The notes under the pieces were generated by a model. That model was given only the letters and a program-made list of their open reading frames with translations, did not search any database and was not told the DNA's origin. A DNA stretch of 63,246 nt, the filler included, from Reclinomonas americana ATCC 50394 (lineage: Eukaryota): NCBI GenBank assembly GCA_048213135.1. It is 11 parts of 11 records of this genome, joined end to end, with 100 filler letters (N's around TTAATTAATTAA, not from the genome) between each part and the next. Parts side by side here need not be neighbours in the genome. Positions count along the whole stretch, not along the records: positions 1 to 9,288 come from AFZH01021648.1; positions 9,389 to 15,526 come from AFZH01021649.1; positions 15,627 to 24,622 come from AFZH01021650.1; positions 24,723 to 26,424 come from AFZH01021651.1; positions 26,525 to 33,270 come from AFZH01021652.1; positions 33,371 to 37,541 come from AFZH01021653.1; positions 37,642 to 47,073 come from AFZH01021654.1; positions 47,174 to 49,873 come from AFZH01021656.1; 3 more parts are not named here. The stretch is one strand, 5' to 3'. Every line of letters starts with the position of its first letter. Positions within the stretch are counted from its first letter, which is position 1. The position numbers were made by a program, and so were the translations under genes. Shown here one piece after another: positions 3,128 through 63,080 of this stretch.

Positions 3128-4846
3128 TCAGCACAGCGGCGACGCTGTGCTCGGAGTCGGTGGACTCACAGCACTAAACAACTGATCATCGCCCGTGAGT
3201 CGCAACAGGCGTGAAGGTCGCAATCTCCGCAGTTTCCGCTGTGCAGGATCCTCGGCTGCCTCTTCCGCGTGCTTCGTCGGCGTGCTGGCCGGTGCGTCAT
3301 CGATGCAAAGGTCGCTCGGCATCTTATCGATCGAGTCCGTCGACGTCGCCACAGTCGCTGCCTCCAGCTCGATCCGCGCCTTCTCCGCCGCTTGTGCCTC
3401 CACCAGTTGTCTGCTGGCCACAATCTCCGCGAGCGCCTTGTCCACCATGCGCCTGTCGTGGAGAATGCAACAATGAGCGACAACTAATCAACAGATAGAG
3501 AGAGAGAGAGAGAAAGAAAGCGCACCGTCCAGAGTAAGCACCGGTGCCGTTGACATCGACTGACGCGAGAACGCCGCCGGTGGCACTGTCCGCGACAATG
3601 CGTGCCACGCATTGGTGGCCACGACTGCGGAACGGATTGTTGCGTAGCTCCCAGCAGCGCAACACACCACGGCGCATCAACGCACAGAGAGCCGGTTCGG
3701 CGCGCAGCAGTCCTTCCTCGCTGATCTCGCAGTCTGCGAGTGCGTGCGGATGTTTTTGGAAAGTCAAGTCACACATTGTTTTGACCACCACAATCGCCGA
3801 CACAAACCATTCAAACGCAGCGTGGTCAGTGACGGGCACCGTGCAAGGCTCTCCATCAGCGTCGCAAAACTCCGCGCATTACTCAGGTTGTTGCCCGCTG
3901 TACGCGCGCGATGAATGATCTCAGAATGCAGAATATCGAAAGTCGACCCTCGCGCGGAAGCACGACGCAACAGAGGTCCAGTGTGGCAAGTGACGGCATC
4001 GCAGGCACCGCCATGGCCACCGCAAACACCCAGTCATGCACGTCGCTGTTGCACGACGCCAGCGAGAGCGTATGCAGTCGCGGACACCCGAGACCAACGG
4101 CGCACACCTGTCAGCGACCGAGTGAGCACGCGACATAAACGACGACGGACTCTAACAGCTGATGTCCTGCGCACCAGGTCACCCACTGCACGTCCACCGT
4201 GGCTGCCCACAAAGCAGCCTGCACAACGAGTAGAGTTGAGGAGAGGGGAAGATCAAGAGGCTCTCACTGCACTCACGTTCCACTCGCAGCGATTGGAGCG
4301 CGTGCATGTGTCGCACAGCTTCACTCAGGTCGCTCACGTCGTCCAGCAGAATATCAAAACCTGGAGAGGAGGAGAGAGAGAGTGTGTGTCAACTTGTGAT
4401 CTTCAGAAATGAGTGTGTGTGTGCGAGACGTACCCTCCAGCTTCAGGTCTTCCAGTGCGGGGCACGAGGCGGCCACTGCCGAGAAGAACGCGTCACTGCC
4501 AGTGAACTGCATGCAGCAATCTGTGTGTGTGTGTGTGCGTCGCGTGAGCAGCCGTCCTCTTCATTTCGCGCCCACTCGCATTGCACACTCACATCGCATG
4601 TCCAGTGACCGCAGAGGCAGTCGCGCACTGTGGAGTGACTGCTGCTGCAAGTGGTGCGTCAGGGCGTGGAAGGAGACATCGCCGAGGCCGGTGACTGTGA
4701 CGAGGGAAAGCGATCTTAGGACATTGACGCGGGACGCCTTCTTATGCCCCCCAACCCGAGTCGCTCTCTCTCTCACCCACGATGGTTTCCTCGGTTCGCC
4801 ACTCTTCGATCAACGACTCGGAGGCGTAAGCGTTGGGCGATGTCAT
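3128..4846 (-). CDS. Leucine-rich repeat (RNI-like) protein, about 8 exons
   Basis: Spliced LRR motifs: CPALEDLKL, CPRLHTLSLASC, SLATLDLSGNNL (across intron 3971-3898), CPSLTTLRLNDCEI, WELRNNPF. Stop at 3128. Start inferred at ATG 4846 (MTSPNAYASESLIEEW). Confidence 0.7.
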
Positions 4847-5034
4847 GGCGCGTTGTTGTGTTCGCTCACAAAAAATACTGGTGGTGTGTCTTGATTTCCC
4901 AAGTGGCGTCGGAAAAACACCACGGGACGAAACAAAGCAGGCTGGCACTGGGCACCGTGTGGCCCACGCGAAGCCTACTTGATCGTGCGCGATCCAGTGA
5001 CAAACTGCAAGTCGGAATCTGTCTGTTGACATGA

Positions 5035-6677
5035 TTAGCGACGTTCACTCACGCCAACGGTGCACCGTCGCACCGCATCCACCGCGCCTGCCGACAGCCG
5101 TTCCCATATGCTCGGAGGACTGCGATGAATCAGCTGCTGCAGACGGTCCACCTCACAGGCCGTGTGCGTCGCCACATCAATATCAGCTGCTGCTTTCGGC
5201 AACCGCTGGCGGAGCCTGTACTCCACGGCCTCCACGCGGATTACGGCATTGTTGCAGAGTGGACATGTTTCGGCACGATGCTGGTCCTCCAGTGCCTCCA
5301 GACACTCGCGACAGAACGCGTGGCCGCACGGAATCAGGCGGTGCGAGGGCGCCACAAAGTCCAGCTGATCTGAGACGTCGGTGCTCGACTCTGGTCCCAT
5401 GCAAATGAGACACTGGCTGTTGGTGCTCGCCGCCTGCGCGCCTACGGGCATAGGTGGAGCGCCGGCGGCAAGGGTGGATGCGCGCTGCCGCAGCTCTGCG
5501 GCCAGCTGCAGTCGTTGCTCGACATTTAGGCGCTCACACAGCGTGCCGGCTGGCAAGGTGAGGTACTCGGCGAGTCGATTAGCTGCATGTATTGGTGGTG
5601 ATGCACAAAAGTAATGAGCATCGAATTGCATTCTGCGCAGCATGTATGCGCGCGCGCACGGTACGCGTACCTGTTGCGAGAGCACCGTACTCGGTCGGTA
5701 GTGGTGGATGCGCTGGCACCATTCTCATCTCCACTCGGCCAAGAAGTCGGCGGCCTACAGCGCGACTGAAACCGCACGCAATCGTTATAGCGATAATGCA
5801 GGCGATCCCACATTCGTAGACCACGAGTGGAGTGGCTATAGGATAGTACCCGTAGCCTCGGTAGTTCATGAGCCACACGGTAGTCGTGCTCTGCAGAACA
5901 TCCGAAGTGCTGAGGGCAGCCAGCCAAAACGGCAACGGCTGACCACCACCACGCACGAGCAACACGAACACGAGCAGGCCTGACGTGTTTGGCAGCGCAT
6001 TGCAGAAAAGGCGACATTTCAGATACAAGGCGCCCAGCAGCCCGTCAACCCACACCATCGCACTAATAGTCAAACTGATGGCGCCTGTGGCCCACACTCC
6101 GTAGACTTGAAGCAGGCTGTTCGGGTCCTCGGATGGCCTCTCCTTTGCTTTGATGTGCGCACAAGTACCGCAAAATGAGTGACTGCAATGGACACAAATG
6201 GCACGGAAAACGCACAGTAGTAATCTCGTTGCGTAAACGACGGCTCCCATCGATCCAGAACCGCGAGAAGCAGCACCACAAGCATGCCCATGGCCCCCCA
6301 CAGCCGCATGTGTTTTATCTGGTCTTCCCACACCACGTCTGCATAGAGTTCGGCGTCACGATAGCCGACTCGTTCGAGATACCGACGACGAATTTCATCC
6401 CGGGAGCGCTCGTACAGGCGTGACACGTACTGCACGCCCCGTCCGTGTCAGATGGCACAAGGTACATATAGGATGCTGAATCAGCACATGTGCACGCGTC
6501 ACTCACCTCCGAGAGAACGAACAAGGTGCCGTACGCGAACAAGGTCGTTACTGCCATGGAGAGTGACCACATGTCGTATCGCAGCACTCCCAGGCGTGCC
6601 GCAAGCCAGAAGGCCGCCGCGTCAAAGGGCCATTGGACACCCATCGGAAGGCGCCGCAGAATGCAATGGTACCACAT
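5035..6677 (-). CDS. Multi-pass membrane protein with C-terminal RING-HC finger, paralog B (4 exons)
   Basis: ATG at 6677 (MWYHCILRRLP), aligns end to end with paralog A, RING CLICM...PCGHAFCRECL...CPLC, TAA stop at 5035. Confidence 0.85.
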
Positions 6678-6812: not shown

Positions 6813-9288
6813 TTACTTGCTCATTACTTGTACATACGTCGACGGCACAAGTCCCTCCTGCGCATCACACAGTGAGCGATCCACCGCATTCACAGACAGA
6901 ACAGAATCGATCTATGAATGCACTGACCTGGTTCCGCTTGTTGACACCAAAGAACCAGTCGCCACTGTGTGCACAAAACGAGGTGAGCAGCGTGATTCGC
7001 GCGGAAGCCTGACAAGAATACGAAAAACGCACCGTCGCCACAGCAGATCGACGATTTCGCCTTCGTACAATCTCAGCATGCGTGCATCGTCGGGGGCGTA
7101 ATCGTACAACACCTGCGTGGCGAGTCAGCATAATCAACCAAAGCCGTGCCTGTGTGCAACGCTACTCACCAAGCACTGCGTTCCAGTAACATCCTCGTAC
7201 GAGGGTGCCACTGCAGCCTGCGAGTTGTCGTTTGACGACTGCGCGTTATCGTTCGCAGCGATCGAATTTGTGTTTGAGGCAGTTGCCGTCGCCTCCCTAC
7301 TCGCGCCTGAATGCGCAGCTGGAGGCGCTGCCGCTGCCGCCGCTGCCGCTGCCGTCGTGGTGGTGGTGGTGGTGGCGGTGGTGGCGACAACTGGCGTGGA
7401 GGCTCGTAGACCCATGGAGGCCAATGTGCGCTTCGCGCTCTCATCGAGATGCGAGTCGGAGCGTGCGGCCGACGCTGGGGCCGCCGCCGCCGCCGCTGCG
7501 GCTGGTCGCGCTGGACTGATTCGTCCGTTCGCCACCCCACCACCGCTCACTGCTGTTGCCGCCGCCGGCGACGATGACATGGCCATCGGCAGCGTCGTTT
7601 GTGAGTTGACGACACCTGTACCAACAAAAAAGCGTCAGGAAATGGCGCTCACTTTAAAAAGTGTGCGTGCGCGTGTGATTGTGAAGAACGCACCACCACA
7701 CTTGGCCTTGCGGAAGGCGGCGAGGCAGGCGTGCAACAGATTGCGTCGCTTCGTCTTCAAGTAGATGATCGGCTCACCCGGTGCGGCACGAATGGTCATC
7801 TCGTTGCCTGACGACAGCGACGGCGTGAACTCCACCACCGGCGTGAAGCGAATATGCGCAATGTCTGCTTCACGGCCAAACACTCGCTTCTCGTACAGCC
7901 GGAAACCCTATTGGGCGCTCACCATGTCAGAAAGAAACACTCGCCAGGTGCGCACTCGAGTAGAGACGCAACAGATGAGTCAATATCGAGTCGCACTCGG
8001 CGCTCCTTGTGCTTACTGCTGCCAGCAGCCGTGTACACCTCGAACGCCACCTTGCCCTCGCGCATGTACTCTTGCACGTCGCGCTCCTCGGCCTCGGTAA
8101 GCGGAATGATTTCCTCTGCGGCGCAGCAGCCGGTGTACATGAGAACAACAGGAGAACACAGGCACATGAGAGAGGAATCGACAACGTCGCACACACCACG
8201 GAAGAGCGACTCTTGCGGAACAAAAGCATTGGCAGAAAAGTTGCTGTTCATGGCCAGGATGGTGACCGATTGCTGCACGAGCCACATGCGAAGGGTGAGA
8301 GCAAGCCACCACCAACAAAAAGAAAACCTAACGCACCGAATCATCCTTGGCGTGGATCGTGTTTCGTCGACGCTGAGGGCTCACTGCACCGCCACCGTCC
8401 AGCGGATCGCGTGGCGAGATGCCTGAGGCGGCCGATGCAGGTGCCATGGTCAGCGGAGTGGCAGCTCGAACGACAGGTGCAGCTGCAGCTGGCGTCGCTG
8501 CTGGTGGTGCTGCCGCTGATGCCGCCGTCGCAGGTGGCGCTACTGCGACACCACTCTCCGACGCCAGTCGCTCCTTCTCGTGCTTCAAAATCTCCATCAT
8601 CTCCACTCGTATGGCCTCCTCGGACTGCGCGCCCACCAACGACGACGATGGCGCATCGCCGATACTCGGCAACGCGTGCGCAGGTGCGCCACCAACACCA
8701 ACACCACCGGCAGCAGGCACAGCGTTCGGGCTGGTGGCGTTACCGCCGTCATCGTGGTGTTTCCTTCTTTGCAGCTTTTCGTGTATCCTTGCCTTGATGG
8801 CGTTGCGCTGCTGACTTGGATCGTCGGAGGGCCTCTGCATCTCAAAGTGGGTGAGAGGAAGAAGTGGAGACACACGTCCGTGGCAACCCCCACTCACACG
8901 CACCTCATCGACACCACCATTCGCGTCACCGGCATCACTGCCGTTGGCGGACCTGGCGGACTTGGGTGAGGTATCGCTCGCACCAAGGGGTGGCGTCGAC
9001 GACACGATTTCGCGCTTGAGACGGGGCAGTCGTGGCGGCTCCACACCAGCACCCTCGACAGATTCGTCCAACGGGGTTCTCGCTCGTGCCGCCTCGAAAC
9101 CCTGCCGCCTCGGCTGATAATCTCGGCCCGACAGTGAGAGAGACTCACTCGGCACCGGCGACGCAGTCCGGCCACCACTCTCCGGCGAAGCGCGATCATC
9201 CAGCAGTCGCTGCGCACGGGGTCAGACGAATCATTTCTTGCGTCTGAGCAAGCACGCAGTGGCAAGAACCTTGGCGGGAGACTTTGGA
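6813..9288 (-). CDS. SH3-domain protein with low-complexity Ala/Ser/Pro linkers and a possible PH-like domain (5' partial)
   Basis: The last exons splice to VLYDYAPDDARMLRLYEGEIVDLLWRR..GDWFFGVNKRNQ..EGLVPSTYVQVMSK*, which carries the SH3 ALYDY / W / GxxPxxYV pattern. A globular segment at about 7700-8100 is only tentatively PH-like. Confidence 0.75.
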
Positions 9289-9388
9289 NNNNNNNNNNNN
9301 NNNNNNNNNNNNNNNNNNNNNNNNNNNNNNNNTTAATTAATTAANNNNNNNNNNNNNNNNNNNNNNNNNNNNNNNNNNNNNNNNNNNN
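9289..9388. other. Artificial assembly spacer (N44-TTAATTAATTAA-N44)
   Basis: Identical 100-bp block with six-frame stops, present ten times in the window. Confidence 0.98.
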
Positions 9389-9591: not shown

Positions 9592-11076
9592 ATGACCATG
9601 CTGGTCATTCCGTGTCTGGGTCTGCTGGTGGCCTGGGCGGTGGCCGCCAGTGCCACCTTTCGTTGCGTCGCATATCTTGTGCTGGTGACGTGCGTCTGTC
9701 GCTCACTGGTGTGCAGAGGTGACGTGGACGTACACGCCGAGCAACTTTTCGCTGTTTCCCAAGTACTCGACCACGGGCTCGCGAGTGGTGAACGTGCACG
9801 TGCAGGCCACGTCGTTCAATGCACCGACGGCGTCGCCGTATTTGATGATTGCGGGCACAGGGCCCAAGTACTACAACATCCTGTATGGCGTCGATATGAA
9901 CACGCAGTACACGGAGACGCTGCGGTTGACGACGTCGGCCATCAATCAGAACGGACAAGTGTGGGTCAATGAGCGGCTGCCGGTGTCGGATTCGTGGCGG
10001 TCGACGTTCCGCTTCCGCTTGTCGCGCGATCATGCGCGGATCAATCGGTGCTTTGACTGCTTGGATGCCAACACGCCCGATGCCACCGATCATCACCTCC
10101 CGTACAATGTCGGCGAGGGATTCGCCTTTGTCATCTACAACACCAAGCGTGGCACGCAGCCGCTGCTCGGAGGCGGCGGCTCGCAGCTCGGCTACGGCAA
10201 CTTGAAGAATCTGCTGGCTGTGGAGTTTGACTTTCGCCTGTCGACCGACTTGCTGGACCCGAGCATGGCACACATTAGCGTGCGCTCGCAGGGCGACCAG
10301 GTGAGTGGGGGAGAGAGGAGCGTGTCTTGCTGTGCGCGTGTGTTGATTGCTTCTATGTGCTGCAGTTGGTGACGGCCACACACGCGCTGCCGTTTCCGCC
10401 CACTCCACCACCAGCGTTTGGCACGGCGTTGGAGTTCACGGGAGACCAGTCGTACGCGCAGTACAGCTGGGAGAACAAGTACTCGCTGGTCAACTACTTG
10501 TCGCCGAACGTGACGCCACCGTACTCGTTTGCGCACATTCCCGAGGTCTACGACAGTCACGTGCACAAGGTCGACATTCAGTACGACAACAAGATTCGCC
10601 GACTGCAGGTCTTCATGGACGACAGCCCCATTCCGGCGCTCACGAACACGGTGGATCTGCGCAACACAGTCATCCTCAACCAGTCCGACAAGTGCCCCTA
10701 CAACGACAGCTGTCTGTGGTGCACCGAGGACTACGACGATCCCGGCTGGCTCTACTCTAATTGTCGCTGCGGCGGGCAAGACGGCGCACTGATCTACGAC
10801 ATTGACCTGCGGCCGATCAACAACATCATGACGCGCGCCGCCTACAGGATCGTCGTCATCAAGGGCAACCGCGGCGGCAACCAGTGGCCCGACTGGGGCA
10901 AGTGCTACCCGTGCCAGTACCGCATCGCCTGCGCGGCCTGGGTCGGCTTCACCGCCACCACCGGCAGCACCACCGACGCCGTGTCCAATCTGGACTTGTA
11001 CGACTGGACGTTCGACGGCACCTCGGTGCTCGATCCAACCACGCGCTGGATCCAGAACTGGGCCGGCAACGTCTGA
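9592..11076 (+). CDS. Secreted legume (L-type) lectin-domain protein (3 exons)
   Basis: Signal peptide MTMLVIPCLGLLVAWAVAASA, then L-lectin motifs LRLT..GQVW, GEGFAFVI, LGY..LAVEFD..HISV, HKVDIQYD..LQVFMD..VDL and AWVGFTATTG..DWTF. Introns at about 9662-9716 and 10301-10365. Confidence 0.85.
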
Positions 11077-11123
11077 GTGAAAACCACGAGGAAAATTTGT
11101 TTTGTTTCTTCTTGTTGTTGTGC

Positions 11124-11868
11124 ATGGCCGCGAGCGCAGAGAGCAGCAGTGTGCGAGTGGAGGAGGGGGAGGATGCCGAGGTGGAGGCCCACATCACTGC
11201 CATGATCGAGCGCGGCGAGTGGACCGTTGAGTGTAGTAAGAGAGAGTGGCGAGCCTGTCTGTCGCACTGACATGCAGTGTGCCAGGTGGACAAGGCCTCA
11301 CAGGCATTCATCCTCAGTCTGGGCATGTACCCGGTGCTGACACGCTCACTGGGCGGCGCACAGACCACTCGTTGCGTTGTGTGATCATCGCTGAACAACA
11401 GCAACAACAAGCCCTCTCACATCGCGTGTACACACAGGCTCCGTCCTGTCAGTGGTTCTGGCCGCACGCGACCCCGCCTCCACCTCCACCTCCACCTCCA
11501 CCTCCTCCATCGACATGGAGACGGCGCTGTTCACGGCCCTCATGGACGAGTGGAACGCGATTGTCCGTCGCGTCTTTGCGCAACTGGAGCTGTGCGCTCG
11601 CTCCACCTCCTCCTCCTCGGCATCACCCAAGGAACGCGAGGAGCTTCTGATCCGCGCATACGTGCGCGGAGCACTCGACCTGGAGATGAAGGTCCTCGAT
11701 CCGCTGCGCCAGTTAACGTCGCACATTGAGGGCCAAAGCGCACTGGACGAGTTGCTGCCCATGGCCGCTGCTGGCATGCGACTACACGATGATGGTTTGT
11801 TAGGCTGCAGCTTCTGTTGCTTCCCTTCTTGTCTTTTTTATTTGATGTCGACGTTGTGCGCAGAATGA
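11124..11868 (+). CDS. Hypothetical helical protein (spliced; 3' end uncertain)
   Basis: MAASAESSSVRVEEGEDAEVEAHI..VDKASQAFILSLGMYP..DMETALFTALMDEWNAIVRRVF..LDELLP, with coding-like codon usage and phase-compatible introns. No family recognised. Confidence 0.5.
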
Positions 11869-12044: not shown

Positions 12045-12319
12045 ATGTCTTCGGCATCGAGCAGCACTGTGAGCTTTGCGGCCTCCACCACCACTGCGCA
12101 TCTGGAGGAGCGCTACATGACAGAGTTGCGCGTTGTCTCACGCGCGCAATATACACACACACGCGAAATGCGCGAAAAGAAGACAGTTGACCAGTGGCAC
12201 TTTGTGAGAGCTTGTGCGCGCAAGTCTGAGTGTGTGTGCGCCTGTGCGCGTCTCTCTCACTCTTCACTCTCTCTGTGTGAGAAGTCGTTCATATGGCTTT
12301 CCCGCGCGCCATGGCTTCT

Positions 12320-12351
<32 letters not shown>

Positions 12352-13057
12352 TGTCTCTCTCACACACACTCTCACACTGTTTCACTCACTGTTTCATTGT
12401 GGTTTCATCATTGCCAGTCGCATCGGCAGCGAAATCTTCTGCTTGCGATTCTCGACTGATGGACACTATGTCGCGTGCGGTTGTGGCGATGCCTCAGTGA
12501 AGGTCAGTGTGCTCTCTGTCTCTCTCACATACACTCTCTCCTCATTCATCGATCACCATGCTCAATTTGGTTTTTGCGATGAAAGGTGTTTTCGACGGCT
12601 GACGGTCAAAAGGTCTACAACATGGATCTCAAGCCGGAGCGCGGTGTGCCACTGCCTGTGACATGCATGCGATTCCGTCCCAGCTCAGTGTCGCGCTCCA
12701 AGAACATTCTCCTCTGCGCCAGTTGCGTCTGAGAGAGAAGACGACGAAGAATGCGTTGAGAGGAGTGGGACTCGCTCTGGTTCACTCTCCCCTCCTCACC
12801 TTCTGCTTTTCGCTGCCTTCCCTGTTTACTCTCCACTGTGCTCTCTCTCTCTCTCTCTCTCTGTTCACTACATTCCATATCTTTGTTCCTCTGTCCTCCA
12901 CCACGCTCTCTCTTCCGCTCTGCTTCACTCTCCTCGCCTTCCTCACCTTCTGCTTCCCTTCCACAAGCTTCTTTTGTTGTCTATCCTGTTTCCCACTCGG
13001 TTCTTTCTCTCGCTCATTTCCTTCTTCTCTTTCTTCTTCTTCTTCTCTCTTCTTCTT

Positions 13058-13098
<41 letters not shown>

Positions 13099-14042
13099 TC
13101 CACCTTCTCTCTCATCCCCCTTCCCCTCCTTGCAGCCGCCAACGGCACGGTGGAGCACTGGCACCTTGGCTCGGCGAAGCGCGTGTCGTGCATCACGGAG
13201 CCCGGCAATCAGGTGTTTGGTTTGGACTACCATCGCAACGGGAGCACCTTTGCGACGGCCGGCAGCGACTTCAAGATCCGCATCTACGACGAGGGCACCA
13301 AGGAGAAGACGCAGACGCTGGAGGGTGGTCACGGTCAGGAGACGGCCGGACACTCGAATCGTGTGTTCTCGGTCAAGTTCCACCCGGAGGACGACAATCT
13401 GCTGATGTCGGCCGGCTGGGATAACACGGTGCAGATCTGGGACACGCGTGTGGACTACTCGGTGCGCTCCATCTACGGACCACACATTTGCGGCGATGCC
13501 ATTGACATGTACGGCAACCTGCTGCTGACGGCATCGTGGCGGCGCGAGGAGCAAGTGCAGGTGCGTGTGTCGCCACCGCCTCATGTACGTCTTCGCTTGC
13601 TTCTCCCTCTCACGTGTGGCAGATCTGGGACTTTGGCACGGGCGAGCTCATCAAGAACGTGCGCATGCCGAAGCTGGCACAGGGCGAGATGCAACCGTAC
13701 TGCGCCGAGTTCAGTCACGACGGCAAGTTCTTTGCGGTGGCCGGCTCACACTCGTTCGAGGGTCTCCTCTTCAACACCTCCACGTTGAAGTGCGAGGCGT
13801 CGGTGTTTGGCATGGAGGACTCATTGTACTCGCTGAACTTTTCACCCGACGACGAGTGCCTCGCGTTTGGTGGTGCCAGTGGACAACTCAATGTGCAGGT
13901 GAGTGTCGTGTGTGCGTGGGGAAGTGGTGGTTTTGCATATTGCTGATGAATGGGATCGCGGGGGACGCAGAATGTGGTGCGAAGAAGCGGATATGCGGAC
14001 CCCGACAGTCCACGGTTGGGCGAGAGTGCCGTGTCACCGTGA
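12045..14042 (+). CDS. WD40-repeat protein (6 exons)
   Basis: Repeats IFCLRFSTDGHYVACGCGDASVKVF, ATAGSDFKIRIYD, GHSNRVFSVKFHP..SAGWDNTVQIWD, LLTASW..QVQIWD and LYSLNFSPDD. TGA stop at 14040-14042. Confidence 0.88.
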
Positions 14043-15526: not shown

Positions 15527-15626
15527 NNNNNNNNNNNNNNNNNNNNNNNNNNNNNNNNNNNNNNNNNNNNTTAATTAATTAANNNNNNNNNNNNNNNNNN
15601 NNNNNNNNNNNNNNNNNNNNNNNNNN
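15527..15626. other. Artificial assembly spacer
   Basis: N44-TTAATTAATTAA-N44. Confidence 0.98.
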
Positions 15627-19900: not shown

Positions 19901-20088
19901 ACTGTCGCCACTGCTTCAGAGCCTGCATACGCACACACGCACACACTGAGTGAGAGACACAGAGTGCCTGAGAGAAAGATCATGCGTTGCGCAACAGTCA
20001 GCACTGGTCCATAGTTCTGCGACGATGAGGACGAGGAGGAGGACGAGGAGAAGAAGGCAGCTGCACGCCTAAAGCTCGACAGCAACAT
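16911..20088 (-). CDS. ACOT9: Mitochondrial acyl-CoA thioesterase 9-like (double hot-dog fold), about 12 exons
   Basis: Transit-peptide-like MLLSSFRRAAAFFSSS, then IPLGSDASLRESYVN, LRVGKLLEDLDAVA, VTASVDRI, GNVTWVGRSSMEI, RNIHGKAFGGYLMRQAFE, FLSPVALGS and TNIFHFAF..VMPHSYEESM. Confidence 0.88.
18730..19680. repeat. Degenerate tandem repeat, about 5 copies of a 170-200 bp unit, inside the 1255-nt ACOT9 intron (18530-19784)
   Basis: The anchor GA(T/C)GCACAGGAGA..CGAGCCAGAG(T/C)GAA recurs at 18950, 19121, 19300 and 19499, with a more decayed copy near 18757. GGCACGGGAGAAGGGATGCAGAAGAGCAGA occurs three times. Confidence 0.85.
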
Positions 20089-47073: not shown

Positions 47074-47173
47074 NNNNNNNNNNNNNNNNNNNNNNNNNNN
47101 NNNNNNNNNNNNNNNNNTTAATTAATTAANNNNNNNNNNNNNNNNNNNNNNNNNNNNNNNNNNNNNNNNNNNN
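47074..47173. other. Artificial assembly spacer
   Basis: N44-TTAATTAATTAA-N44. Confidence 0.98.
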
Positions 47174-49873: not shown

Positions 49874-51070
49874 NNNNNNNNNNNNNNNNNNNNNNNNNNN
49901 NNNNNNNNNNNNNNNNNTTAATTAATTAANNNNNNNNNNNNNNNNNNNNNNNNNNNNNNNNNNNNNNNNNNNNAGAGAGAGAGAGAGAGAGAGAGAGCTG
50001 TGTGAGAGAATGTGTGTGTTTGTGTGAATGAATCAGTGAGTGAAGAGAAGTGCATGCGTGGGCGGGAGAGTGAGAAGTGTGTGAGGGAGAATGTAGGTGA
50101 TGTAGGCGTCGCCTTATCCCTCACCTTATCCGTGCTTCCTCTCACCTGACCATGAGGTGCATTGATGATCATCATCCCATCATTATTTGTGGTTTTTCCG
50201 TCATGACTCTTCTCTTTGTCTCTCTCCCTCTTTCTCTCGCTGACTAACTATGTTGCTCTCCCTCTGCCTGTCTCTCTCTCTCTCTCACTCTCTCACGCAC
50301 TCTCTCGTCCCTTTGTCTCTGCCTATGTCTTCTCTTTCTCCCTCTGCCTCTCTGTCTCTCCACTTTCCTTCTCTTCTCCTTATTTCTCACTCTCCTTCTC
50401 TCTCCTTCTCTCCCCTTCCATCTCTCCCTATCTCTCTCTCCCTCTCCCTCTCCCTCTCTCTTGCTTACCATCTTTCCTCTCATGCAGCGATACCGCGAGT
50501 TCCACAAGCTGCACGCGGCCATGCTCAAGATCGCACAGGCGCCGCACCCTGAGTTTGGCACGATTCAGACGGTGGAGTTGCCGCCGTTCCCGGGCAAGAC
50601 GCTCTTCTCCGGCTCCGACTCGGTGGTGCGTGAGCGGCGGCAGCTGCTCGGTGTCTACCTCAGCTATGTGGTGCGCGATCCGCGCTTCTGTGCGGCTCCT
50701 GAGTTGCTGGCGTTTCTGCAAGTCAATGTTGCGTCGCGCGCCCTTTGGTCATCCACGCGCGCGCACGCGCTTGCTCATTTTGTGCGCGCAGGAGAGCCCC
50801 GTGTCGTATCTCCTCAATGCCGAGACCAGCGCCCGAGCTCCACCCGAGATTCCTGCTGTGCGGCGTCGGAAAAAGTTGCGCTTCTGCTGTGTCGTCGACC
50901 ATGTCTCCGTATCACTCACTGAGGTGATGTACAGGGCGCTGCGGAGTGCCATCCAAAATGAAATGTCGGCATTCCAGGCCACATCGGCACCGCACGAGGA
51001 TGAGACGACACATCGTGGCCTGGGCACGCCAGTTGAGTTGGCTGGTCAACTATGTGTCCCTCTGCCTCTC

Positions 51071-51114
<44 letters not shown>

Positions 51115-52735
51115 NNNNNNNNNNNNNNNNNNNNNNNNNNNNNNNNNNNNNNNNNNNNTTAATTAATTAANNNNNNNNNNNNNNNNNNNNNNNNNNNNNN
51201 NNNNNNNNNNNNNNTGCCTCCACTCTTCTGTCTGTCTGTCGTTCCATTACTCCTCGCTCTCCTTTCATCCTCTCCCTCTCCACCCTACTCCCCACTCACT
51301 CACATCTCTTTCTTTCTCCCCTCTTCCCTCACCCCTCTCCCCTCTCCCTCACATGCGCGTTTGTTTGTCGACAGGCGTGAAGTGCGCAAGCGACCGGCCT
51401 TCCGGCGCACCACCAGCCTCGACTCCAACGAGAGCATCGAGCCTCTGTCACCGGCGAATCCGCGGGTGAATGTGGCGCCCATGTCGCTGCATCCGTCCGA
51501 CTTTTCGCTGGCTCCTGAACCGGAGGTGCCGGCCGACGCCGAGGACGATAAGGCCGTGTCGGAGCCCGATCGGGTGCGCGAGTCTCCCACCGGGGCGGCG
51601 GTGACAACGCGCAGCCTGCGGGCCGGTGTGGATGCGACCGACGACGACGCCGGCGACGACAGCAGTCAGGAGGCGATGCCGGCAGAGACGCTGCTTGCCG
51701 CGTCCATGTCGGAGCGGGGAGCCGGAGGAGGACCGTCGTCGTCAGCGGCAGCTTCAGCGGCCGCCGGAGCTCCGGAGGAGATCACTTCGGTGGCCTCGCC
51801 ATCGTCGGGTTTGGTCAGTTTTGGCCGCATGCTGCGCGACACACTGGAACGATACAACATTGCTCCAGCCCCCAAGCACTGGTTCTTTGTCGACCAGGTG
51901 AGAGGGAGGGAGGGAGCGGGGAGGGACAGAGTGGGCAATCCCTCTCTTTTTCGCTTTTCTCTGAAGTGCGGCTTGTGTAATTCAGATTCTGAGCGTCAAC
52001 AGCGTGAGCGGCGGCCAGTTCAGCGAAATGGGACCCGGTAATCGGCGTACCATTCGTGCCGTGGCACGCAAGTTTGAGCAATGTGCGTTGCGATGGATAT
52101 GCGGCCAGCAGCTCGATTGCATCATTCTCACACACCGTTGCAGCTTCACGCGGAGTACAACTGGTGTGCGTGCGCTGGCTGGAGTTGTCGCCAATGCCGC
52201 ACTCGAGCATGTCGTCGGCCGTGGCCGGCTTGGTCCGTGCGGGCAATCCACTCGAATCACCACCTCAGGAGGTTCATCTCTCTCTCTCTTCCCAAGCGTC
52301 ATGCTTTCGCTCCTTCCTTCCACTGACCGGCGCATGCATGCAGCGTGAAATCTTTGTGGAGACACCAGAAGGAGCCGAGCTGGTTGACGTGCTGCGCGTA
52401 CAACGCCGCGAGGCACAACTCCGTGCTCTCCGCCTGCTTTCCTCCTTGCAACACTCACACGTTCTGCGATCCACTCCGTATTCTTCGGAGAATCCACGGC
52501 ACGAGGGTCTCCTGCAGCAACTGTGGGACCAGGTTACGTACGGCAAACACCTCCATCCATGTCGATGACGGCAGTCTCACACCGCTGCGCGCCGCAGGTA
52601 TTCCCTGACACTCCGCTCGCCGCTCGTGTGACGGACCAGTGGAAGCGACTTGGGTTCCAGGTGCGTGTGTGTCTTCGTATGTGTGCGTGTGTCTTTCTCT
52701 CTTTGTTTCCCTTTTTCTTTGTCTCTGTCTTTCTG

Positions 52736-54246: not shown

Positions 54247-57200
54247 TCACGTCGCAGTGACCACACCGAGTGACTTGGACGCGCGCTCGTCCGGCACGTC
54301 CAACGTGCCGCTCGGCTCGCCGCCCGATCCCACCAACGCCTCTAACATGTCCACACTATCCTTCTTTCTCGCTACGCTGCAAATATCGTACAAATCGTCC
54401 AGTGCATCCAGCAATGTGGCCGATGACCACGCCTGCAGCCAACCTGCGTAAGTCTCGAAACAGGAACACAGTGTAGAGGGACGGCACCACAAACCTGCGT
54501 CTCACAGCTGAACCGACAGTGCGCGCCACCCTCGTTCGTCAACTCCGGCAACCCGCGGTACGGCCCGTTGATCGCCGACACGTGTTGTTGCAGCAACCGG
54601 AAGATGTAGTAGGAGATACTTTAGCGCAAAAAAAATGTACGTCAGCACGTGCAAACAAAAGAGGATCGGTGCAAGTGGACGCAGACAAACCGGCCCGGCT
54701 CGCAAGAAGCAAAACGCGAGTCGAAACGCATCTGTTTCGGGAGCGACACAAGGAGGGTGAGAATCAAGAGAGCCAATCAATGTAAAGCAAAACAGCAGAA
54801 ACAGCAAACCTTGGCTCGCAAGTAGTATCCGAGTGGCCACAGCCTGGTGTCGACGGCGAGTGGTTGAGAAGACAATTTCACAACGGTTCATGGGATCAAC
54901 AACGCGCAGTCTCACCACTCGGGACCCTGATGATAATTGAAGCCTCGCGCCACCGAATAGTCCTCCGAGTCCAGGCTGTTGTCGTACACGGGCCTGTAGG
55001 CCCAGTCAGCCGGATCCAGTGTCTTCATCTGCGAGTACGCAGAGGTAAGACAATGGATGGATGGGAAGATCATGCTCGCCACCAACGCACCCCCAGCTTG
55101 GACACCAAGACTTGCTCGACCATCTTCAGCGCGTGCGCCGCATGCTCGTGCACAAAGAGCTCCGGCGCCACGCACATGGCCACACATTGGTTTGGTCGCA
55201 ACTGGTAATCGGTGAACTGATCCGTGCTCCGGTACACATCCTTGTAGATGCCACGACGATGCACCAACGACGGCGTAATGTCATACGTGTTGGCGTAGTC
55301 AGCCAGATCGGAGGCACTTCCCGCCGATGTCATGCTCGACGAGCACGACAGGCCGAGCTTGTCCAGTGCCGCAGAGGAGCCTCCAAAGTCTGCCGGAACC
55401 CCAGAGAATGAAAACATGTGACGATTGAAGAGGAAATCACCGCCAAACTCACCAGTCAGGCTCGTCGACGTGACCAGCCGCATGGAAGTTGACGTGGCGG
55501 GGATGTAGAAGCACCGCTCAAAGTTCTCAAACACCAACGCTGAACATCACACACACGCAGCGCAGTCAGCACATGCCAAGCGAGCGGGGCACGCAAAGTG
55601 TTGAAGAGGGAGGGCAGTGCGTACCTTGCCAGTCGCTGTAGAAGAACGTCTCCTCAGTGTCAAAGAGGAACACGCCGGCGTACGGGAACGCATCGGGATC
55701 CGAGCTCTGCAACTCGCTCAACCACCGCAGAGTGGAGAACAGGAGACCGGCAATCTCGATGGGGCACCCGTCACGGGGGGTGGCTGGAATGCCAAAGTTG
55801 TTGGCCACGGTGCTCTCGCCCACCTTGTCCATCCATGTGCCTGTGGGGAAAATGGGGTTCAGCGAGTCGTCGGCGTAGTGCAGCAACTCGTCACGAGGAT
55901 GCACGAACCGGCATTGAACTTGTTGCCGCCAAAGAGAAGACCAGTCTCGCGATCCAGATCAATGTCGACATTGAAGCCATCGGATGTCTGCGAGAGACAA
56001 CGAATGAGCCACGCGCGTCACAAAGCACAGGCAAGGCAATAATGAGTCCATTCACGCACCATGCGCTCGTCAATGTCCTTGCCGGCATTCCACTGCAGTA
56101 CGATCGATGAGTAATGCGCACGCGAGCAGTAAATCATGGGCCCCCAACAATACACACCTCGCGGAAGTGAATGCCATTGGCGTGCTCCTCCATAATGGAC
56201 TGGATAACATCACGCAGCGGCACTGTGGACTCTTGCGCAGCCGGTGTCTCGCGACGATTCTCACGGCGTCGCACCGTGGCCTCACGGCGGTGCGGCAAGC
56301 TGCGCGGACTCGACGCCGACTTGCCGCTGCTGCTGAGACTCATGGTTGGCGACCGCGCCGACGCGTGCGGGGATGGTGACCGAGATGCCGACTGTTGCAG
56401 GGAATACCATTCAGCTAATCACGCACGCACTCGGACACAAAAAGACAGCAAGCCGCGCACCACCGATCGGCCAGAGTCCTCCTGCACGTGGATGGTGCGC
56501 GGATCGGGGCGATGGATCGGGAAGCGCAGCTCCACCGGCTTGTCCAGAATGGCCAGCCCGTCGGAGGGGTGCATGGTCACGTAGTCCTGCACCGCTTGCA
56601 GGAACCACCACACTATAGCGACGGGAAAAGAAGGATGAGTGAGCTTGCTTTGACTGAGCACCACAAGCACAACCGACCTGAATCGCGACTGTTGTATCGC
56701 GGATTCCGACCGCCGTCCTTTACACAAGGCACACAATCGTCAGCATGGAAGTCTGGAAGATACAAATACACACATGCGCGCACATACCAGCAAGTTGGGA
56801 ATGAGGCCGTGGCGCAGACACCTAGCAAACCCGATAATGACGTCCTCGGCCTCCTTGAAGCGTCCCGTAACCAGCATCAGGCCTGCCATGTCAACACGAA
56901 CATGAGTTCCTTCATTCGTACGATCGTGATAATGCCAATACTTGTGACGTACCACGCAGGGAAATGAACGTGTCGCGTCCCCAGGCGCGCATGTAGCCAG
57001 TCGCAAAGTGGTCCAGACCGGCGGCCAGACTCGGCGACGGGCTCTGCGCGCACGGCAATGAGACCAAACAATCCAAGCGGCAGCGACGCGCGGACCACCT
57101 CTCCCAAACCAACCTTGTCGTGCTCAATCGGTGCATTGGGAATGTTGCCAAAGAGCTGGATGCTGGTCAGCGCCAGCGCACGCGTGAAATCGCTAGCGTC

Positions 57201-60200
57201 GACCACCGACTGCAACGAATCGGCAACAGTTCAGAGGCACACGACTTCGAGAGAAGAGTGGGGAGAAGAATGCGCAACTCGACAATTGGCAGGCAGCAAC
57301 TGCAGTGCGCGGTTGCACAGCTCGCGGCACACGTTGGACATGATGACATCAAAGTACTTGGGACGCAGGTAGTGCGGGGTCTGTCGGAAGATCTCGCCAG
57401 TGGTGGCCATCCACTGCTGCAGCCGTCGTGCACTCGGCAAGTCGCCTAGTCTGGCCGACACGTACTCGTAGAGCCAATTGCCAGCACTGCAACGGGTGGC
57501 GTGTCAGCAACGACAACAGCATCGAGTGCATGCATATCTTTCCTTGTGCGCAGTACTCACCGAACGTTGCCATACACGGGATGGCCCAGATCACGCGAGG
57601 CACGGGCGACATCGAGCGCCCACTGGATCGACGAGAAGCCAGCGTACGGCAGCTGTTGGAATCCAGGAATGCCATACGAGCCTCGGCCAAACGATGCCTG
57701 CTCTTCCGCATTGCAGCGGAACAAGACGTAGTTCAGTCCGACCAGGTCCAGCTCAGAGCACGCCTCGCGCAGTGAGTCGCGGAGAGGAGCGCGCGACGGA
57801 TTGCCACTGAAGCGAGATGAGACACACAGCATCGCAGTAGAAAAGAGGGGCAGATGTGAACTGGCACGCACCACCACAACTCGGTCAGCGGTGTCAAGCG
57901 AACGGCCAGAGTCGGATTGGAGATGGAGAACACAGCAACGGAACCCGGCGGGAAGAGCGTCATCTAGAAAGACACATATTCAGTCAGCGATAAGGCAGCA
58001 ACGCACGTCCACTGTGTGTGCGTGTGCACGCAACATCCACTGTCAACTCGTCATGCTTCCATCCGGGTGTCTCATCGCTTTCGACACGGCGCACCGAGTA
58101 GAACGAGCCGAGGCTGTGCACTTCGGCGGGCAGACCATGCAGAATGTGGTCACGCTTGCCTTGTGAACCGTGCGAATCCTGTGGCATGGCGAGTGAGGGA
58201 CAGAAACACGCACTTCAGGGACGAGAGGGACGCACATCCTTCGGTTCCACCACACCCGACCACAGGAACAACTCGAGCTCGCCGGGGAGCGACACCTCGA
58301 TGGACGATTGCGAGGCTACGCAGAGGGAGTGAGTCGGGGATGGATCACATGACCACCAGCGAACAGCGGACGCAACAGCGGCAGCTGGCAATGGCCGAAC
58401 GCACAATCATGAGGAAGCCGTGATGTGTTTCGGCTCGGTACCGCAGAATGGCATGCACGTCACTGCACTTTTGATCCACGAACAACTCATTGTAGCCGTG
58501 CCGTCCCATATGGTCGTGCAATCGGCTCAAGAACTGGAGGGGGAGGAGATTACTGAGAAGATGCACTGACGAGAAGGAGCGGGGAAACCCAAGAAACCTT
58601 GCGCGCACTGCTAATGCCAATCTGGTCCAGGATGTCGCCGTGCGGCAGCGCCGGCAGCAGGTTGTCACGCAGCGACTCGGGTTCCGACTCGGGACCCACG
58701 CAGTACGACTCGGCACCGGTCTCCGAGACACTGCGAGAGACGTGGAGAGGGAAAAGTCAGCGAACTGTGTCAACACAAGGAGGTACATGCACACACAACT
58801 CGAGTTGGAAGGTGGAGCCGCGAGTCGTGATTGCCGTCTGCTGAGCATGCGCAGGGGTGACGTACTGCAATGGAAAAGACAAATAGGGCGCGTAAGAACA
58901 TTGTCAACTCTCGAGGACGTGGCAAGTCGCGGTCGTGTACCTGCGGATACAGACGCTTCTCGTGCACCACGTGGACATTTTCGCGGAACAGCTCGTCGTG
59001 ACCCTTGACGGAGCCGACGGGGCATGCACACATGCAAACCATGGCGGTGGTCGGCAACACATCCTGCACGCCGCGCCGTTGCACAATGGTCTCATTGTCG
59101 TGCGTCACGTCGAAGAAGATCGAGGCGGGGCGGGAGGGCAGCAGCGGTCGCACAACACGGCCTTCCGAATCAAAGGTGACACTGCAACAGAACATGATGA
59201 ATGTCAAACGGGATGAACGCGGAGAATGCAACTGCGGAACAATGGTGACGGAACTCGGCAAACGGAGTGCCCACACTCTCGCCGCAGCCAAAGCGGTGAA
59301 CGAGGCTACGCCACAACAGGCAGGCACGAAGGTGAGAACGAGGAGAGTGCAGCGACTCTTTTGAGCGCATGGGGAGCTGACTCACCGTCCAAGCTCATGC
59401 GCATCGTTGGCATGCACACTTTCGCGCAACAGGCAGTCGACGCCGAGGTGCGATACGAACCACGAGTCGATCTCGTCAGAGCCGGTGAACAACTCGCCGA
59501 AAACAAACAGGTTTGGTCGCACTTCGCGCGCCTTGTCGAGCATGTACTGGCCGACGTGGACGGGGGTGGAGTGCGCATTGTCGATGCGGAAGCCGTGGAA
59601 GATGCGAGCCTGTGTCACGTGAGAGAGAGAGAGAGAGGAGGGAGGAGGGGAGAGAGAGGAGGGAGGAGGGGAGAGAGAGGGAGGCAGAGACAGACAGAGC
59701 GACAGAGAGACAGAATCAGACAGAGCGACAGAGAGACAGAATCAGACAGAGCGACAGAGAGACAGAATCAGACAGAGAGAGACAGAGAGAGAGAGAGAGA
59801 ATGAGCTCTCTGATCAGTTGCTGCTCCACCCTGACACACTAACGCACCATCCACTGCGTGTACATGGTCATGCGATCCCACAGCGGAGGGCACGACTGCT
59901 CATTGGCGCCGAATCGGAGCTTGACACAGTCGCCCCAAATCACCACCTCGCGTCGCAAGTAAGCCTTGCTTTTCTCTGCGTGCACGGCGACAGTCAGGCC
60001 AACGACGAGCACCAGTGGTTTCGCGTGTGCAACACACCGCTGACAAAGTCCTCGTGACCAGGTCGACCAAANNNNNNNNNNNNNNNNNNNNNNNNNNNNN
60101 NNNNNNNNNNNNNNNTTAATTAATTAANNNNNNNNNNNNNNNNNNNNNNNNNNNNNNNNNNNNNNNNNNNNCATCCACCCATTGTTGGCCAGGTGCACGC

Positions 60201-63080
60201 GCTCGCGATTCCTCTGATTGACGACGGTGGTGAAGTATGGTCGAGTGACAGGGTGCCAGGGAGTAATGGGTCCGTCCTTGGGGCCACGCGGGTCCAATCG
60301 TGTCCACCTGTGTGTCAATGTCAGCAACGTTGGGGCGGGTGTAATGGCAGTCAGATTAACACATCGCAACTTCATCTCGTTGCGAATGGCGTTGAAGGCG
60401 CACTCCATGTCACCGTGGTACTCGGCCATCAGGGGCGCGTTGATCGCGTCCAGTGCACGACGGAACTGAGCAATGCGGAACTCGATCTCACCGCGGTTGT
60501 CGCACTGCGGCACGTTGAACAACGACAGCGCAGTCTCCAGACGGACGCACAGCGAGAAGCTGCAGGTGGTGGTGGAAGTGAGCGTAGGGAAGCTTTACCT
60601 CTTTAACATATTGTCACTTACCGGTCACGAGAGCTGCGACGGAAGATGCCCTTGTCGCGCAGCGTCTCCACCTTGCGCTCAAACGACCACTCATTGACTT
60701 CGACACCAAAGTTCTGGAAGTACTTGCCTCGTGTCAGTGCCGAGCGCAAGTCGTGCACGTGTTGATCCACTTGCAGCGTGTAGTACTCCCACAGACACAG
60801 TTCCGACAGGACACTAAGAACATGGAAGGGTGAGACACAATGCGACGACTCGACAAGAAAAACCGCGGCGCGTACTCAACTCGCTCTTCATCTTCTCCAC
60901 CAGTGCGTCGACCTCTTCGCCCGTGTTCACCACGTTGCTGAAGCCGGGGATTTTCTTCTGATACAGTGACAGACTCCACTCGTAGAGCGCGTTGTCGAGA
61001 GCGTAGGCACTCTTCAGGTGCGGCGAGTTGCGCAGATTGTAGCCACACTCGGGGAACTCGCGGAGCCACTGAGGAGAGGCGGCGCAATCAATATCGCGAT
61101 CGGAAAAGGATTCGTGAATATGTGTCGCTCACCTGGCTGTCGGCACTGGTGTGATTGTACACCATGTCCACCACGCACAGGCAGTGAAAGTAGCGCTCCA
61201 GCTGACTGATTTGGTTCTCTGTGCAAGGGTGAATGAGAGAGAGAGGGAGAGAGGGAGAGAGATGACCCACTCACCCAGCATGCTGAACTGGTCATCCAAA
61301 CTCGGCACGGCTCCGGCGGCGTCTGCCGGGAAGATGGAGGCACCAAATGCCAGCTGATCGGCCAAGCTGTACGCACTGTGTGACAGACGGAGAAGGGATC
61401 AGTGCCTTCATTCATAAGCACGCAGGGGAAATGGAGCGGGAGATACCTGTCGGACTTGCCGATGCGTTGCACGGGGGTAAAGTGCAGCACGTTGTAGCCG
61501 TTGTGATGCGTCAGCGCCATGTGCGAGAACCACTCCTCCAACGGACCCAGCGTCTTGGTGATCAGCTGCCAATCACGTGATGGGCACAAGTGAGTCAAAC
61601 GGATGAGGTGAGCAGTCCAGGCAGTTGCAGCGCGTACCGACTGCAAACTGATGCTCGCCAGCGCCAGCGGGTGGCCATTGATGGCCAGCAGTGGTCGCAC
61701 AATGATTTGGACTGGAGTTTCACATTGCCAACGTCAGCACATCACGCGGGATAAGGAGGGAGGGAGAGATGAATGCATGCAGCACGAAACAGTAATCGGT
61801 GCGGTATCGATTGGCCACGTCGTAGCCGTAGGTCACGTACAGATCCATGCTGCCCGGGTGAACCATCTTGACGGTGGCACACAGGTCGCCCAAGCAGCCG
61901 GCGTTGCGACCATATCTGTGAGAGGGGAAGGGAGATAAGGGGGAAGGGGATATGGGGGAGGGGGATAAGGGGAAAGGAGGGGATGGAGAGGGGCAGAGAG
62001 AGAGAAGAGTAAAGAGATTAAGAAACCTTTAGTACGGAGGGGAGAGGGAGCAGACGAGCAGAGAGAAGAACAAATGCAGCGACGGACAGTTGACAGCAAT
62101 GAACAATGGATGGCAGAGGCTGCACAGTGAGCGTGAGAGAGAGTGAGAAAGAGACAGAGAGATGCAAGATGTTCGTCAGACTGAACGCAGGCCACAGCGC
62201 TTCTCTTTGTCTCTCCACAGACAACGACACAGACGAGAGAAGGCGATACGGAAGGAGGAAGGAGGAAGAGAGAAAAGGAATGAGACAGGACGATGTGCAT
62301 AAATGCACTGCCTGCACGCCGCGGTACTGGTCTGTGTCCCCAAAACAAAGAAGAATGGAGACAAGAGAGTGAAGCCAACGGAATGAGACGCCCCGCGCTA
62401 TTGGTCAGACTGAATGCGTGGCCTGCACGCCAGGGTACTGCTCTTCTTGTCTCCCAGACAACGACATACAGATGGAGGACGCACAGAGAGAAAAAGAATG
62501 AGAGAGGATTGTCAATTTCTGTTGGCGACGTGCACGAATGCATGGTCTGCACGCCAGGGTTCTGCGCTGTGTCCCCAAAACATAGCAGAATGGAGACAGG
62601 AGCGGAAGAGGACGCACAGAAAGATAATTCTCTCTCGGATCCGTTGCCGGAAGAGTGGCGTATCGCTGTTTCTTCTCATAGAGCAGCGGAGTGCCGACAA
62701 CGGGGAAGATAGAGGGAGACTTAAACAGAGAGCGAGAGAGACTGCGTGCACTGCCTGCACGCGAGCGCACTGCCCAATCTCTCCCCCACAAACAACGTAA
62801 TAGCTGAGTGACGACAAGGATAGAGAGACAGAGAGATGTTTCGTCACCCTCTCCCTGCCTCCCTGTCCCCTCCCTGCCTCTCCCTCCCTCTTGCAGAGGT
62901 ACGCAACGGCCTGCAATCAATGCTGCGGAACTCGCGTCGCTGAAACGCCTGTCCACTGGCCATGGGCGCATTCGTCCACAGCACCGGATCCTGACACGCC
63001 GGCGACTGTCGTTGCACAATCACACACACCTCGTCGCCAACATCCACACACCACGTGCCGCGTCGATCGGCCTCGCGAAC
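54247..63080 (-). CDS. AGL: Glycogen debranching enzyme (4-alpha-glucanotransferase / amylo-alpha-1,6-glucosidase), eukaryotic type, >30 exons (5' partial; spans a gap)
   Basis: [134 protein letters not shown] and QAWS. Confidence 0.95.
59689..59800. repeat. Intronic 26-bp tandem repeat (about 3 copies) with GA tracts
   Basis: GACAGAGCGACAGAGAGACAGAATCA repeated in tandem. Confidence 0.85.
60072..60171. other. Artificial assembly spacer
   Basis: N44-TTAATTAATTAA-N44. Confidence 0.98.
62170..62810. repeat. Degenerate tandem repeat (about 110/230 bp period) in the ~1-kb AGL intron (61916-62907)
   Basis: GTCAGACTGAA at about 62175 and 62404; G(C/T)CTGCACGC at about 62310, 62420, 62545 and 62753; CTGTGTCCCCAAAACA..GAATGGAGACA twice. 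Confidence 0.7.

Follow-up and report, generated by a model that had tools for sequence, protein, structure and literature searches.

A frequent class of 5' splice sites displaced by one base in introns of Reclinomonas americana

Do the introns of the protist Reclinomonas americana ATCC 50394 begin at one kind of 5' splice site (donor) or at two? The question is raised by a window of 63,246 bases (G+C about 57%), the whole stretch of DNA analysed here, which joins 11 contigs of assembly GCA_048213135.1. A preliminary description of this window listed 27 donors in which the usual motif seemed to stand one base late, after an extra T, and put the class at about 10% of introns. With the cut written as a slash, the normal motif is exon-G/GT-GCGT and the second type is exon-N/GTT-GCGT. 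Both can be read as one word, G-(G or T)-T-G-C-G-T, which differs at a single base between the two types and is cut before its first GT. Donors with G at +5 are termed class O below, and donors with T at +3, G at +6, and no G at +5 are termed class S. All 27 motifs are present at their coordinates and strands, and the analysis confirms the observation as real and as stronger than first claimed.

Introns were predicted with a Viterbi gene finder. It scores coding sequence by periodic statistics and introns by a composition model, to which it adds a length prior and a trained signal for branch plus acceptor. To avoid circularity, its donor score was flat, with every GT treated as equal (donor-blind). 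The 3' signal was first seeded from regular-expression hits of both donor types, the donor sequence being absent from the score. A second version of the model used expectation maximization (EM) on donor 5-mers. From the predictions, a filtered set of 157 introns was taken (length at most 200 nucleotides (nt), positive coding score in both flanking exons, gene score above 40). An earlier gene finder, based on codons alone with flat introns, gave too much noise and was dropped, and a regular-expression count of the motif together with branch and acceptor proved overly permissive and uninformative.

The signal is the location of the motifs, not their raw abundance. GTTGCG has 69 copies where shuffles predict 60, which is unremarkable, and GTTGCGT has 28 copies in the window on both strands, of which 16 serve as donors in the donor-blind model and 19 after EM, making it the commonest donor heptamer. 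The flat model predicts 259 introns, 131 of class O and 35 of class S, a class S share of 13.5% (confidence interval (CI) 9.6-18.3%, noise included), while class S makes up 3.7% of all 8,452 GT sites (binomial p 5.5e-11 for 35 of 259). In the filtered set, the share is 31 of 157, or 19.7% (95% CI 13.8-26.8%), and the class is found in all ten contigs that have filtered introns. The remainder comprises 95 class O donors, eight with G at +6 and another base at +3, two GC donors, and 21 others; many of these other donors are flat-model mistakes beside a normal donor in the same frame. The earlier description was right to call the class routine, and its figure of about 10% was too low against both shares. 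As intron starts, 22 of its 27 donors are recovered by the flat model and 23 after EM, to which 52533 (+) can be added, as it is predicted on its own strand in a gene removed by the strand-overlap filter; 12125 (+), 23034 (+), and 62907 (-) stay unconfirmed. About ten class S donors come in addition to that list, at 7972 (-), 18036 (-), 32925 (-), 38791 (-), 39477 (-), 39600 (-), 50728 (+), 58034 (-), 58376 (-), and 59254 (-).

A class of this size could be the tail of a loose consensus, and the filtered donors speak against this. Among the 155 that begin with GT, G at +5 and G at +6 nearly exclude each other: three have both, 92 have G at +5 only, 39 have G at +6 only, and 21 have neither (p 7e-18). 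Donors with G at +6 only carry T at +3 in 31 cases and another base in eight, though the latter class is five-fold commoner among GT sites. A position-independent model of a degenerate consensus, the comparison suggested at the outset, expects 5.0 class S donors where 31 are observed. Ablation of the gene finder gives the same picture. Forbidding class S, at 3.7% of GT sites, costs 97 nats, while three random subsets of the same 3.7% cost 5.5, 9.9, and 32.9 nats; forbidding G at +6 without T at +3, at 18.1% of GT sites, costs 2.9 nats, and forbidding class O, at 29.9%, costs 465 nats. Class S is a discrete second donor type in a mixture, and not a loose consensus. A further class with two added T's was considered and rejected, with zero cases in the filtered set. 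Separately, the donor-blind model places donors at 19768 (-), 22492 (+), and 25198 (+) in which a TCGT core follows two or three additional T's (GTTTTCGT, GTTTTTCGT, GTTCTTCGT); these lie in weakly supported low-complexity stretches, and none passes the coding filter.

The two classes are introns of one kind that differ in how they start. Median length is 67 nt in each (p 0.85), and the acceptor base is alike. All 31 filtered class S introns start with GT; the AG end is required by the model, and the base before it is C in 26 and T in five. In 239 regular-expression-seeded introns, a branch-like motif of the CTSAY type is found with a median distance of 21 nt between its A and the acceptor, the trained branch matrix reads C-T-C/G-A-C, and a similar motif is visible in the class S introns inspected. 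Judged from these sequence features, the class S introns are best described as ordinary U2-type GT-AG introns with a median of 67 nt and a CAG acceptor. The U12 type has a long, conserved donor consensus of the RTATCCTT type; class S donors, GTT followed by GCGT, TCGT, or GAGT, are unlike it, and a U12 assignment was rejected. Also rejected was a reading in which both ends are shifted (TT...AGN), which makes both intron ends non-canonical and gains no help from the first exon base (G in 10 of 31).

How the second motif is placed relative to the exon can be asked of base composition. When each class S position is set against the class O position one base upstream, the profiles agree: S(-1) is like O(-2) (p 0.27), S(+4) is like O(+3) (p 0.10), and S(+7) is like O(+6) (p 0.19). 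When the same positions are compared without displacement, they differ at -1 (p 7e-13), at +4 (p 4e-15), and at +7 (p 4e-7). The class S profile is the class O profile displaced by one base, with the exon side included. The absence of G at -1 from most of these donors, already remarked on in the preliminary description, is borne out, with G in two of 31 class S donors (6%) against 76 of 95 class O donors (80%; Fisher 1.3e-13).

This exon-side loss bears directly on how the donor is recognized. The reading that carries most weight here, at somewhat less than even confidence, is a one-base shifted register with one reader for both words, used by about 15-20% of introns. U1 small nuclear RNA (snRNA), or another first donor reader, would bind both seven-base words in the same frame, and the cut would then fall at the available GU, one base further upstream in the second type. 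That U1 does this reading, and that the added base is tolerated at later steps (U6), is our inference. One alternative is a bulged register, in which U1 pairs with exon position -1 and with +1/+2, one U of +2/+3 is left unpaired as a bulge, and the helix continues at GCGU. In human cells, a +2/+3 bulge has experimental support (PMC4856993). The T required at +3 (31 against eight) also suits a bulge, and two U's would offer two equivalent bulge positions. A bulged U, however, keeps the last exon base paired, so that G is expected at -1; class S mostly lacks it, and its -1 position resembles O(-2). The scarcity of G at the last exon base thus favours the shifted register, and the bulge is an improbable account of the class. 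The likeness to human shifted or bulged U1 registers that was proposed earlier fits, with the shifted form preferred since position -1 shifts too.

Single junctions were examined through homology. Homologues were fetched by single-exon queries, and spliced alternatives were then scored against profiles; for the glycogen debranching enzyme, 44 full-length homologues were used, with profile states and a local ranking of alternatives. Pfam searches of 57 single exons gave matches too few and too short to fix junctions. The class S junctions that bear on homology are as follows.

12722-13135 (+), WD40 gene, GTTGCGT: profile rank 1 of 22, gap-free
52533-52597 (+), ELMO-domain gene, GTTACGT: profile rank 1 of 5, gap-free
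60308-60370 (-), debranching enzyme, GTTGCGA: local rank 1 of 8, ahead by 7 bits
60814-60880 (-), debranching enzyme, GTTGAGT: all match states; gap-free with seven of the nine best-matching homologues shown; local rank 3 of 10
61712-61790 (-), debranching enzyme, GTTTCGT: conserved block begins after the junction; rank 2 of 3, 0.1 bit behind
57964-58034 (-), debranching enzyme, GTTGCGT, newly found: rank 1 of 4 by 0.5 bit; conserved motif three residues downstream
58316-58376 (-), debranching enzyme, GTTGCGT, newly found: rank 3 of 14, 1.4 bits behind; moderate alignment support
57210-57278 (-), debranching enzyme, GTTGCGC: rank 3 of 11, 2.6 bits behind; match states at the junction
59182-59254 (-), debranching enzyme, GTTCCGT, newly found: gene model only; in a lineage-specific insert, rank 9 of 10
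21703-21770 (-), CDK-like kinase, GTTGCGT: downstream exon aligns from its first residue to a conserved CDK12/13/9 motif
46255-46322 (-), giant repeat gene, junction 1, GTTGCGT: paralogous junction
45462-45523 (-), giant repeat gene, junction 2, GTTTCGT: paralogous junction; no in-frame alternative donor within 45 nt
44667-44749 (-), giant repeat gene, junction 3, GTTGAGT: paralogous junction
43880-43941 (-), giant repeat gene, junction 4, GTTGCGT: paralogous junction
43083-43155 (-), giant repeat gene, junction 5, GTTTCGT: paralogous junction

In the WD40 gene (99 homologues), the class S donor leads all frame-compatible GT/GC-AG pairs with 306.9 bits against 302.7, and its junction lies within a strongly conserved block. 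In the ELMO-domain gene (16 homologues), it leads with 161.2 bits against 135.9. At 60370, 60880, and 61790, the debranching enzyme profile is in match states, with conserved residues from the junction or right after it; the junction at 60370 is gap-free with eight of the nine best-matching homologues shown, and one gap lies six residues downstream. These five junctions (12722, 52533, 60370, 60880, 61790) are predicted to restore gap-free conserved protein, and 58034, 57278, and 58376 have moderate homology support. For the kinase donor at 21770, the upstream exon gave no PDB match, and no in-frame donor of the G+5 or S type occurs within 45 nt.

The giant repeat gene contributes a different kind of evidence. 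Its five homologous repeat junctions occupy an identical position in the repeat, and every one is class S and phase 1. They use three cores (GCGT, TCGT, GAGT), and their intron bodies are unrelated. Sharing the class despite such diverged introns indicates that the frame of T at +3, G at +6, and T at +7 was kept. At 43155, in-frame GTGCGT donors at +39 and +45 would give an intron of 34 or 28 nt.

These junctions also bear on whether class S is an artefact of misplaced boundaries, of a GC donor three bases in (GTT/GCGTG), or of assembly errors that added a T to GTGCGT. Some donors are indeed misplaced by the gene finder, several sites offer a GC donor in frame at +3, and at 12722 the runner-up is such a donor, just 4.2 bits lower. 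Assembly errors in ordinary donors would have left G at -1, where class S lacks it, and so do not account for the class. The GC alternative has G at +5 only if the eighth base is G, yet that base is C in 48% of class S donors; homology ranks the class S donor first at 12722, 52533, and 60370, and the ablation loss is specific to the class. An artefact of any of these kinds is very unlikely.

Several points weigh against the shifted register or against the counts on which it stands. The gene finder is self-written, its accuracy is unbenchmarked, and the filtered set derives from it. Homology proves two of its errors, so the model counts carry noise of this sort: at 12509 (region 12503-12585, +) the donor was set 6 nt downstream of its proper place, which adds two residues relative to the 99 homologues, and at 52598-52639 (region 52598-52660, +) a spurious intron was placed within a conserved exon. 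All junctions rest on reading frames, coding statistics, and homology. In the local ranking of the debranching enzyme, class S junctions come first in two of eight cases and class O junctions in 14 of 25; at 60880, a competitor that lacks splice signals is ahead by 8.3 bits, and the junctions at 59254 and 58799 fall within lineage-specific inserts, where homology is uninformative. The displacement is also an imperfect copy, as S(+5) differs from O(+4) (p 0.002) in being more strongly C (27 of 31 against 46 of 95). Finally, duplexes predicted with the human-type U1 5' end, whose sequence is tabulated in PMC4856993, average -6.25 kcal/mol for class O and -1.32 kcal/mol for class S under nearest-neighbour rules that ignore pseudouridines, the cap, and U1 proteins. 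The class S consensus gives +2.1 kcal/mol shifted and +2.5 kcal/mol bulged, neither of which is stable. Plain U1 pairing may therefore not suffice for class S, and its predicted weakness keeps in play either a variant U1 or a greater contribution from U6 and proteins.

Three other introns of the debranching enzyme gene, at 61376-61446, 58865-58940, and 58534-58597 (all -), have donors with G at neither +5 nor +6 (GTATCTC, GTACACG, and GTTTCTT). Homology places each of these donors first, by margins of 6.5-13.8 bits, and the preceding exon ends in AG in all three, which hints at a third, exon-anchored kind of donor. The gene itself (54247-62543, -) is spread across two contigs and has an unusually high density of predicted introns, about 40 in some 1,690 codons, or roughly one per 42 codons.

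If U1 pairing is weak in every register, later factors (the U6 ACAGA box, U5 loop 1, Prp8, U1C, or other proteins) might mainly choose class S donors, with the extra T as their preference. The homology-supported donors at 61446, 58940, and 58597 likewise suggest flexible recognition. One would not expect U6 to read the exon side. The displacement includes exon position -1, and it is most simply explained as one continuous helix moved by one base, so that selection mainly by later factors seems hardly more than a minor contender. A dedicated variant U1 snRNA is a further alternative and also rather unlikely. It might, for instance, differ at the base that faces position 2 of the word; it would pair fully with GUUGCGU and mark the class S introns, leaving the standard U1 for class O, and would amount to a shifted register run with two snRNAs. 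Such a molecule would account for the poor pairing of the standard U1 5' end with class S donors (-1.3 against -6.3 kcal/mol, rounded), and it would suit the discreteness of class S and its core, which in C content is tighter than that of class O. There is precedent in Entamoeba and Mastigamoeba, whose U1 5' ends co-evolved with donors according to the available part of a preprint (10.1101/2022.06.08.495308). The same portion of that source reports that Thecamonas and Micromonas also have C at +4 and yet only a standard U1. No Rfam family was found in the window at gathering thresholds, so there is no U1 or U6 match in it.

The shifted register can be taken further, to a two-register splice code in which about one-fifth to one-sixth of introns would be defined by G-U-U-G-C-G-U and read by a dedicated component. 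This stronger claim is doubtful, and we hold it as a tentative extension. The component would be a second U1 with a changed 5'-end base or an altered U1C/U6 interface, and the cut would routinely be set one base off from the placement of the first recognition helix. If true, R. americana would be the first organism with a shifted register as a major, selected class and not as a tolerated rarity.

Shifted and bulged U1 registers in human account for a few dozen to a few thousand donors and are usually viewed as tolerated exceptions. Roca and Krainer reportedly described, in 2009, human shifted-register donors at which the U1 pairs move by one position and the cut stays at GU. Like class S, these sites have GU followed by U or C and a tail one base late, with G at +6 and not at +5. 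They differ in being a handful, where class S makes up 13-20% of introns, and in their tail, which is AAGU in human and GCGT, TCGT, or GAGT here; U1 suppressor evidence does not exist for this organism. As far as the available text of PMC4856993 goes, the human bulge +2/+3 register covers 54-68 of 201,541 donors, and the validated non-canonical registers together cover 1-2% of human donors. The bulged and asymmetric-loop registers in that part of the article likewise tolerate an extra donor nucleotide, and their bulge model expects G to be kept at exon position -1, unlike class S.

Lineage-specific change of donors is known from the co-evolved U1 5' ends and atypical donors of Entamoeba and Mastigamoeba (10.1101/2022.06.08.495308, available part). 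There, as here, the donor consensus is lineage-specific and includes C at +4 (GUGCGC). In those amoebae, a single consensus replaces the standard one genome-wide, whereas here two registers occur within the same genes, and the portion of the preprint at hand makes no mention of a displaced donor class. The U5-leaning and U6-leaning donors of human form separable classes, as in R. americana, and share one register, unlike class S (PMC11732430, in the part available); the few homology-supported donors here that lean on exon-side AG may be compared with those classes. In a search of full-text literature, to which subscription papers and genome-paper supplements were external, a displaced donor class at such a frequency was unreported for any organism. 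Mechanisms of this kind are known; within the reach of these searches, the novelty lies in the scale and in the clean exon-side signature.

What is a rarity in human introns seems, in this intron-dense DNA, to be a regular second means of marking where introns start, at about one in six of them. With 13-20% of introns bearing one displaced motif, the genome would provide a natural large-scale experiment on the uncoupling of first donor recognition (U1) from the choice of cut (U6, U5, Prp8). The missing G at -1 is a simple test of shift against bulge that can be used in any genome. In practical terms, gene finders with a single donor matrix would break or mis-frame about half of the genes in so intron-dense a genome.

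The other class S donors are placed by the gene models, as listed here.

3898-3971 (-), leucine-rich-repeat gene, GTTGCGT: donor-blind model; upstream exon has a weak LRR_4 match below cut-off
7908-7972 (-), GTTGCGT, newly found: donor-blind model
9662-9716 (+), lectin-like gene, signal-peptide region, GTTGCGT: after EM; the flat model took a GT 12 nt upstream in the same frame
11371-11437 (+), GTTGCGT: donor-blind model; no in-frame alternative donor
16252-16317 (+), HNH-like gene, GTTGCGT, with the rare G at -1: donor-blind model
17449-17506 (-), thioesterase-like gene, GTTGCGT: donor-blind model
17969-18036 (-), thioesterase-like gene, GTTTCGT, newly found: gene model; upstream exon matches 4HBT positions 55-75 of 79, below cut-off
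18397-18463 (-), thioesterase-like gene, GTTGCGC: donor-blind model
19923-19995 (-), GTTGCGC: gene model, weak support, upstream exon of only 8 nt
31029-31103 (-), GTTTCGT: donor-blind model
32855-32925 (-), GTTGCGT, newly found: donor-blind model
35844-35911 (-), GTTGCGT: donor-blind model
35967-36028 (-), GTTTCGT: donor-blind model; no in-frame alternative donor
38720-38791 (-), GTTGCGT, newly found: donor-blind model
39411-39477 (-), GTTGCGT, newly found: model after EM
39554-39600 (-), GTTCCGT, newly found, short at 47 nt: model after EM
42832-42896 (-), giant repeat gene, GTTGCGA: donor-blind model
48631-48698 (-), TPR gene, GTTGCGT: donor-blind model
50728-50791 (+), PX-domain gene, GTTGCGT, newly found: gene model; upstream exon covers PX positions 14-83 of 84 and ends at the donor

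A homologue search with the thioesterase exon found none, and the donors at 17506, 18036, and 18463 rest on the gene model. The three unconfirmed donors of the preliminary description are as follows.

12125-12131 (+), claimed donor, unconfirmed: models use a GT 7 nt downstream, with weak homology there
23034-23040 (+), claimed donor, unconfirmed: model reads through to a stop at 23042
62901-62907 (-), claimed donor, weak support: debranching profile match (positions 65-104, 4.7 bits) ends at 62910

An intron at 23034 is possible, as the next predicted gene may be part of the same gene. Beyond 62907, the next debranching profile match (positions 109-144) starts at 61890.

Metagenome contigs include no close relative; the best match there to a debranching-enzyme exon is 64% identical, and two short end matches of high identity turned out to belong to distant genomes. 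For a conserved WD40 exon, the named homologues belong to widely differing protists and share no more than 63% identity.

The contigs of the window are joined by ten identical linkers (44 N, TTAATTAATTAA, 44 N) at 9289-9388, 15527-15626, 24623-24722, 26425-26524, 33271-33370, 37542-37641, 47074-47173, 49874-49973, 51115-51214, and 60072-60171. The joins are artificial, so adjoining contigs are not necessarily neighbours in the genome and genes cannot be traced across the linkers. Long CT, GA, or GT microsatellites form the ends of several contigs. The following genes were also observed.

1271-2995 (-) and 4975-6644 (-): adjoining paralogous genes for multi-pass membrane proteins with a Cys-rich, RING-like motif at the end; no class S donors predicted in either
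37642-47072 (-) and 33371-37539 (-): two very large, open-ended genes for Thr/Ser-rich repeat proteins

One of these two large genes has cadherin-like repeat borders and, later, beta-propeller-like repeats, and the other has short repeats of the Gly-Gly-Ala type.

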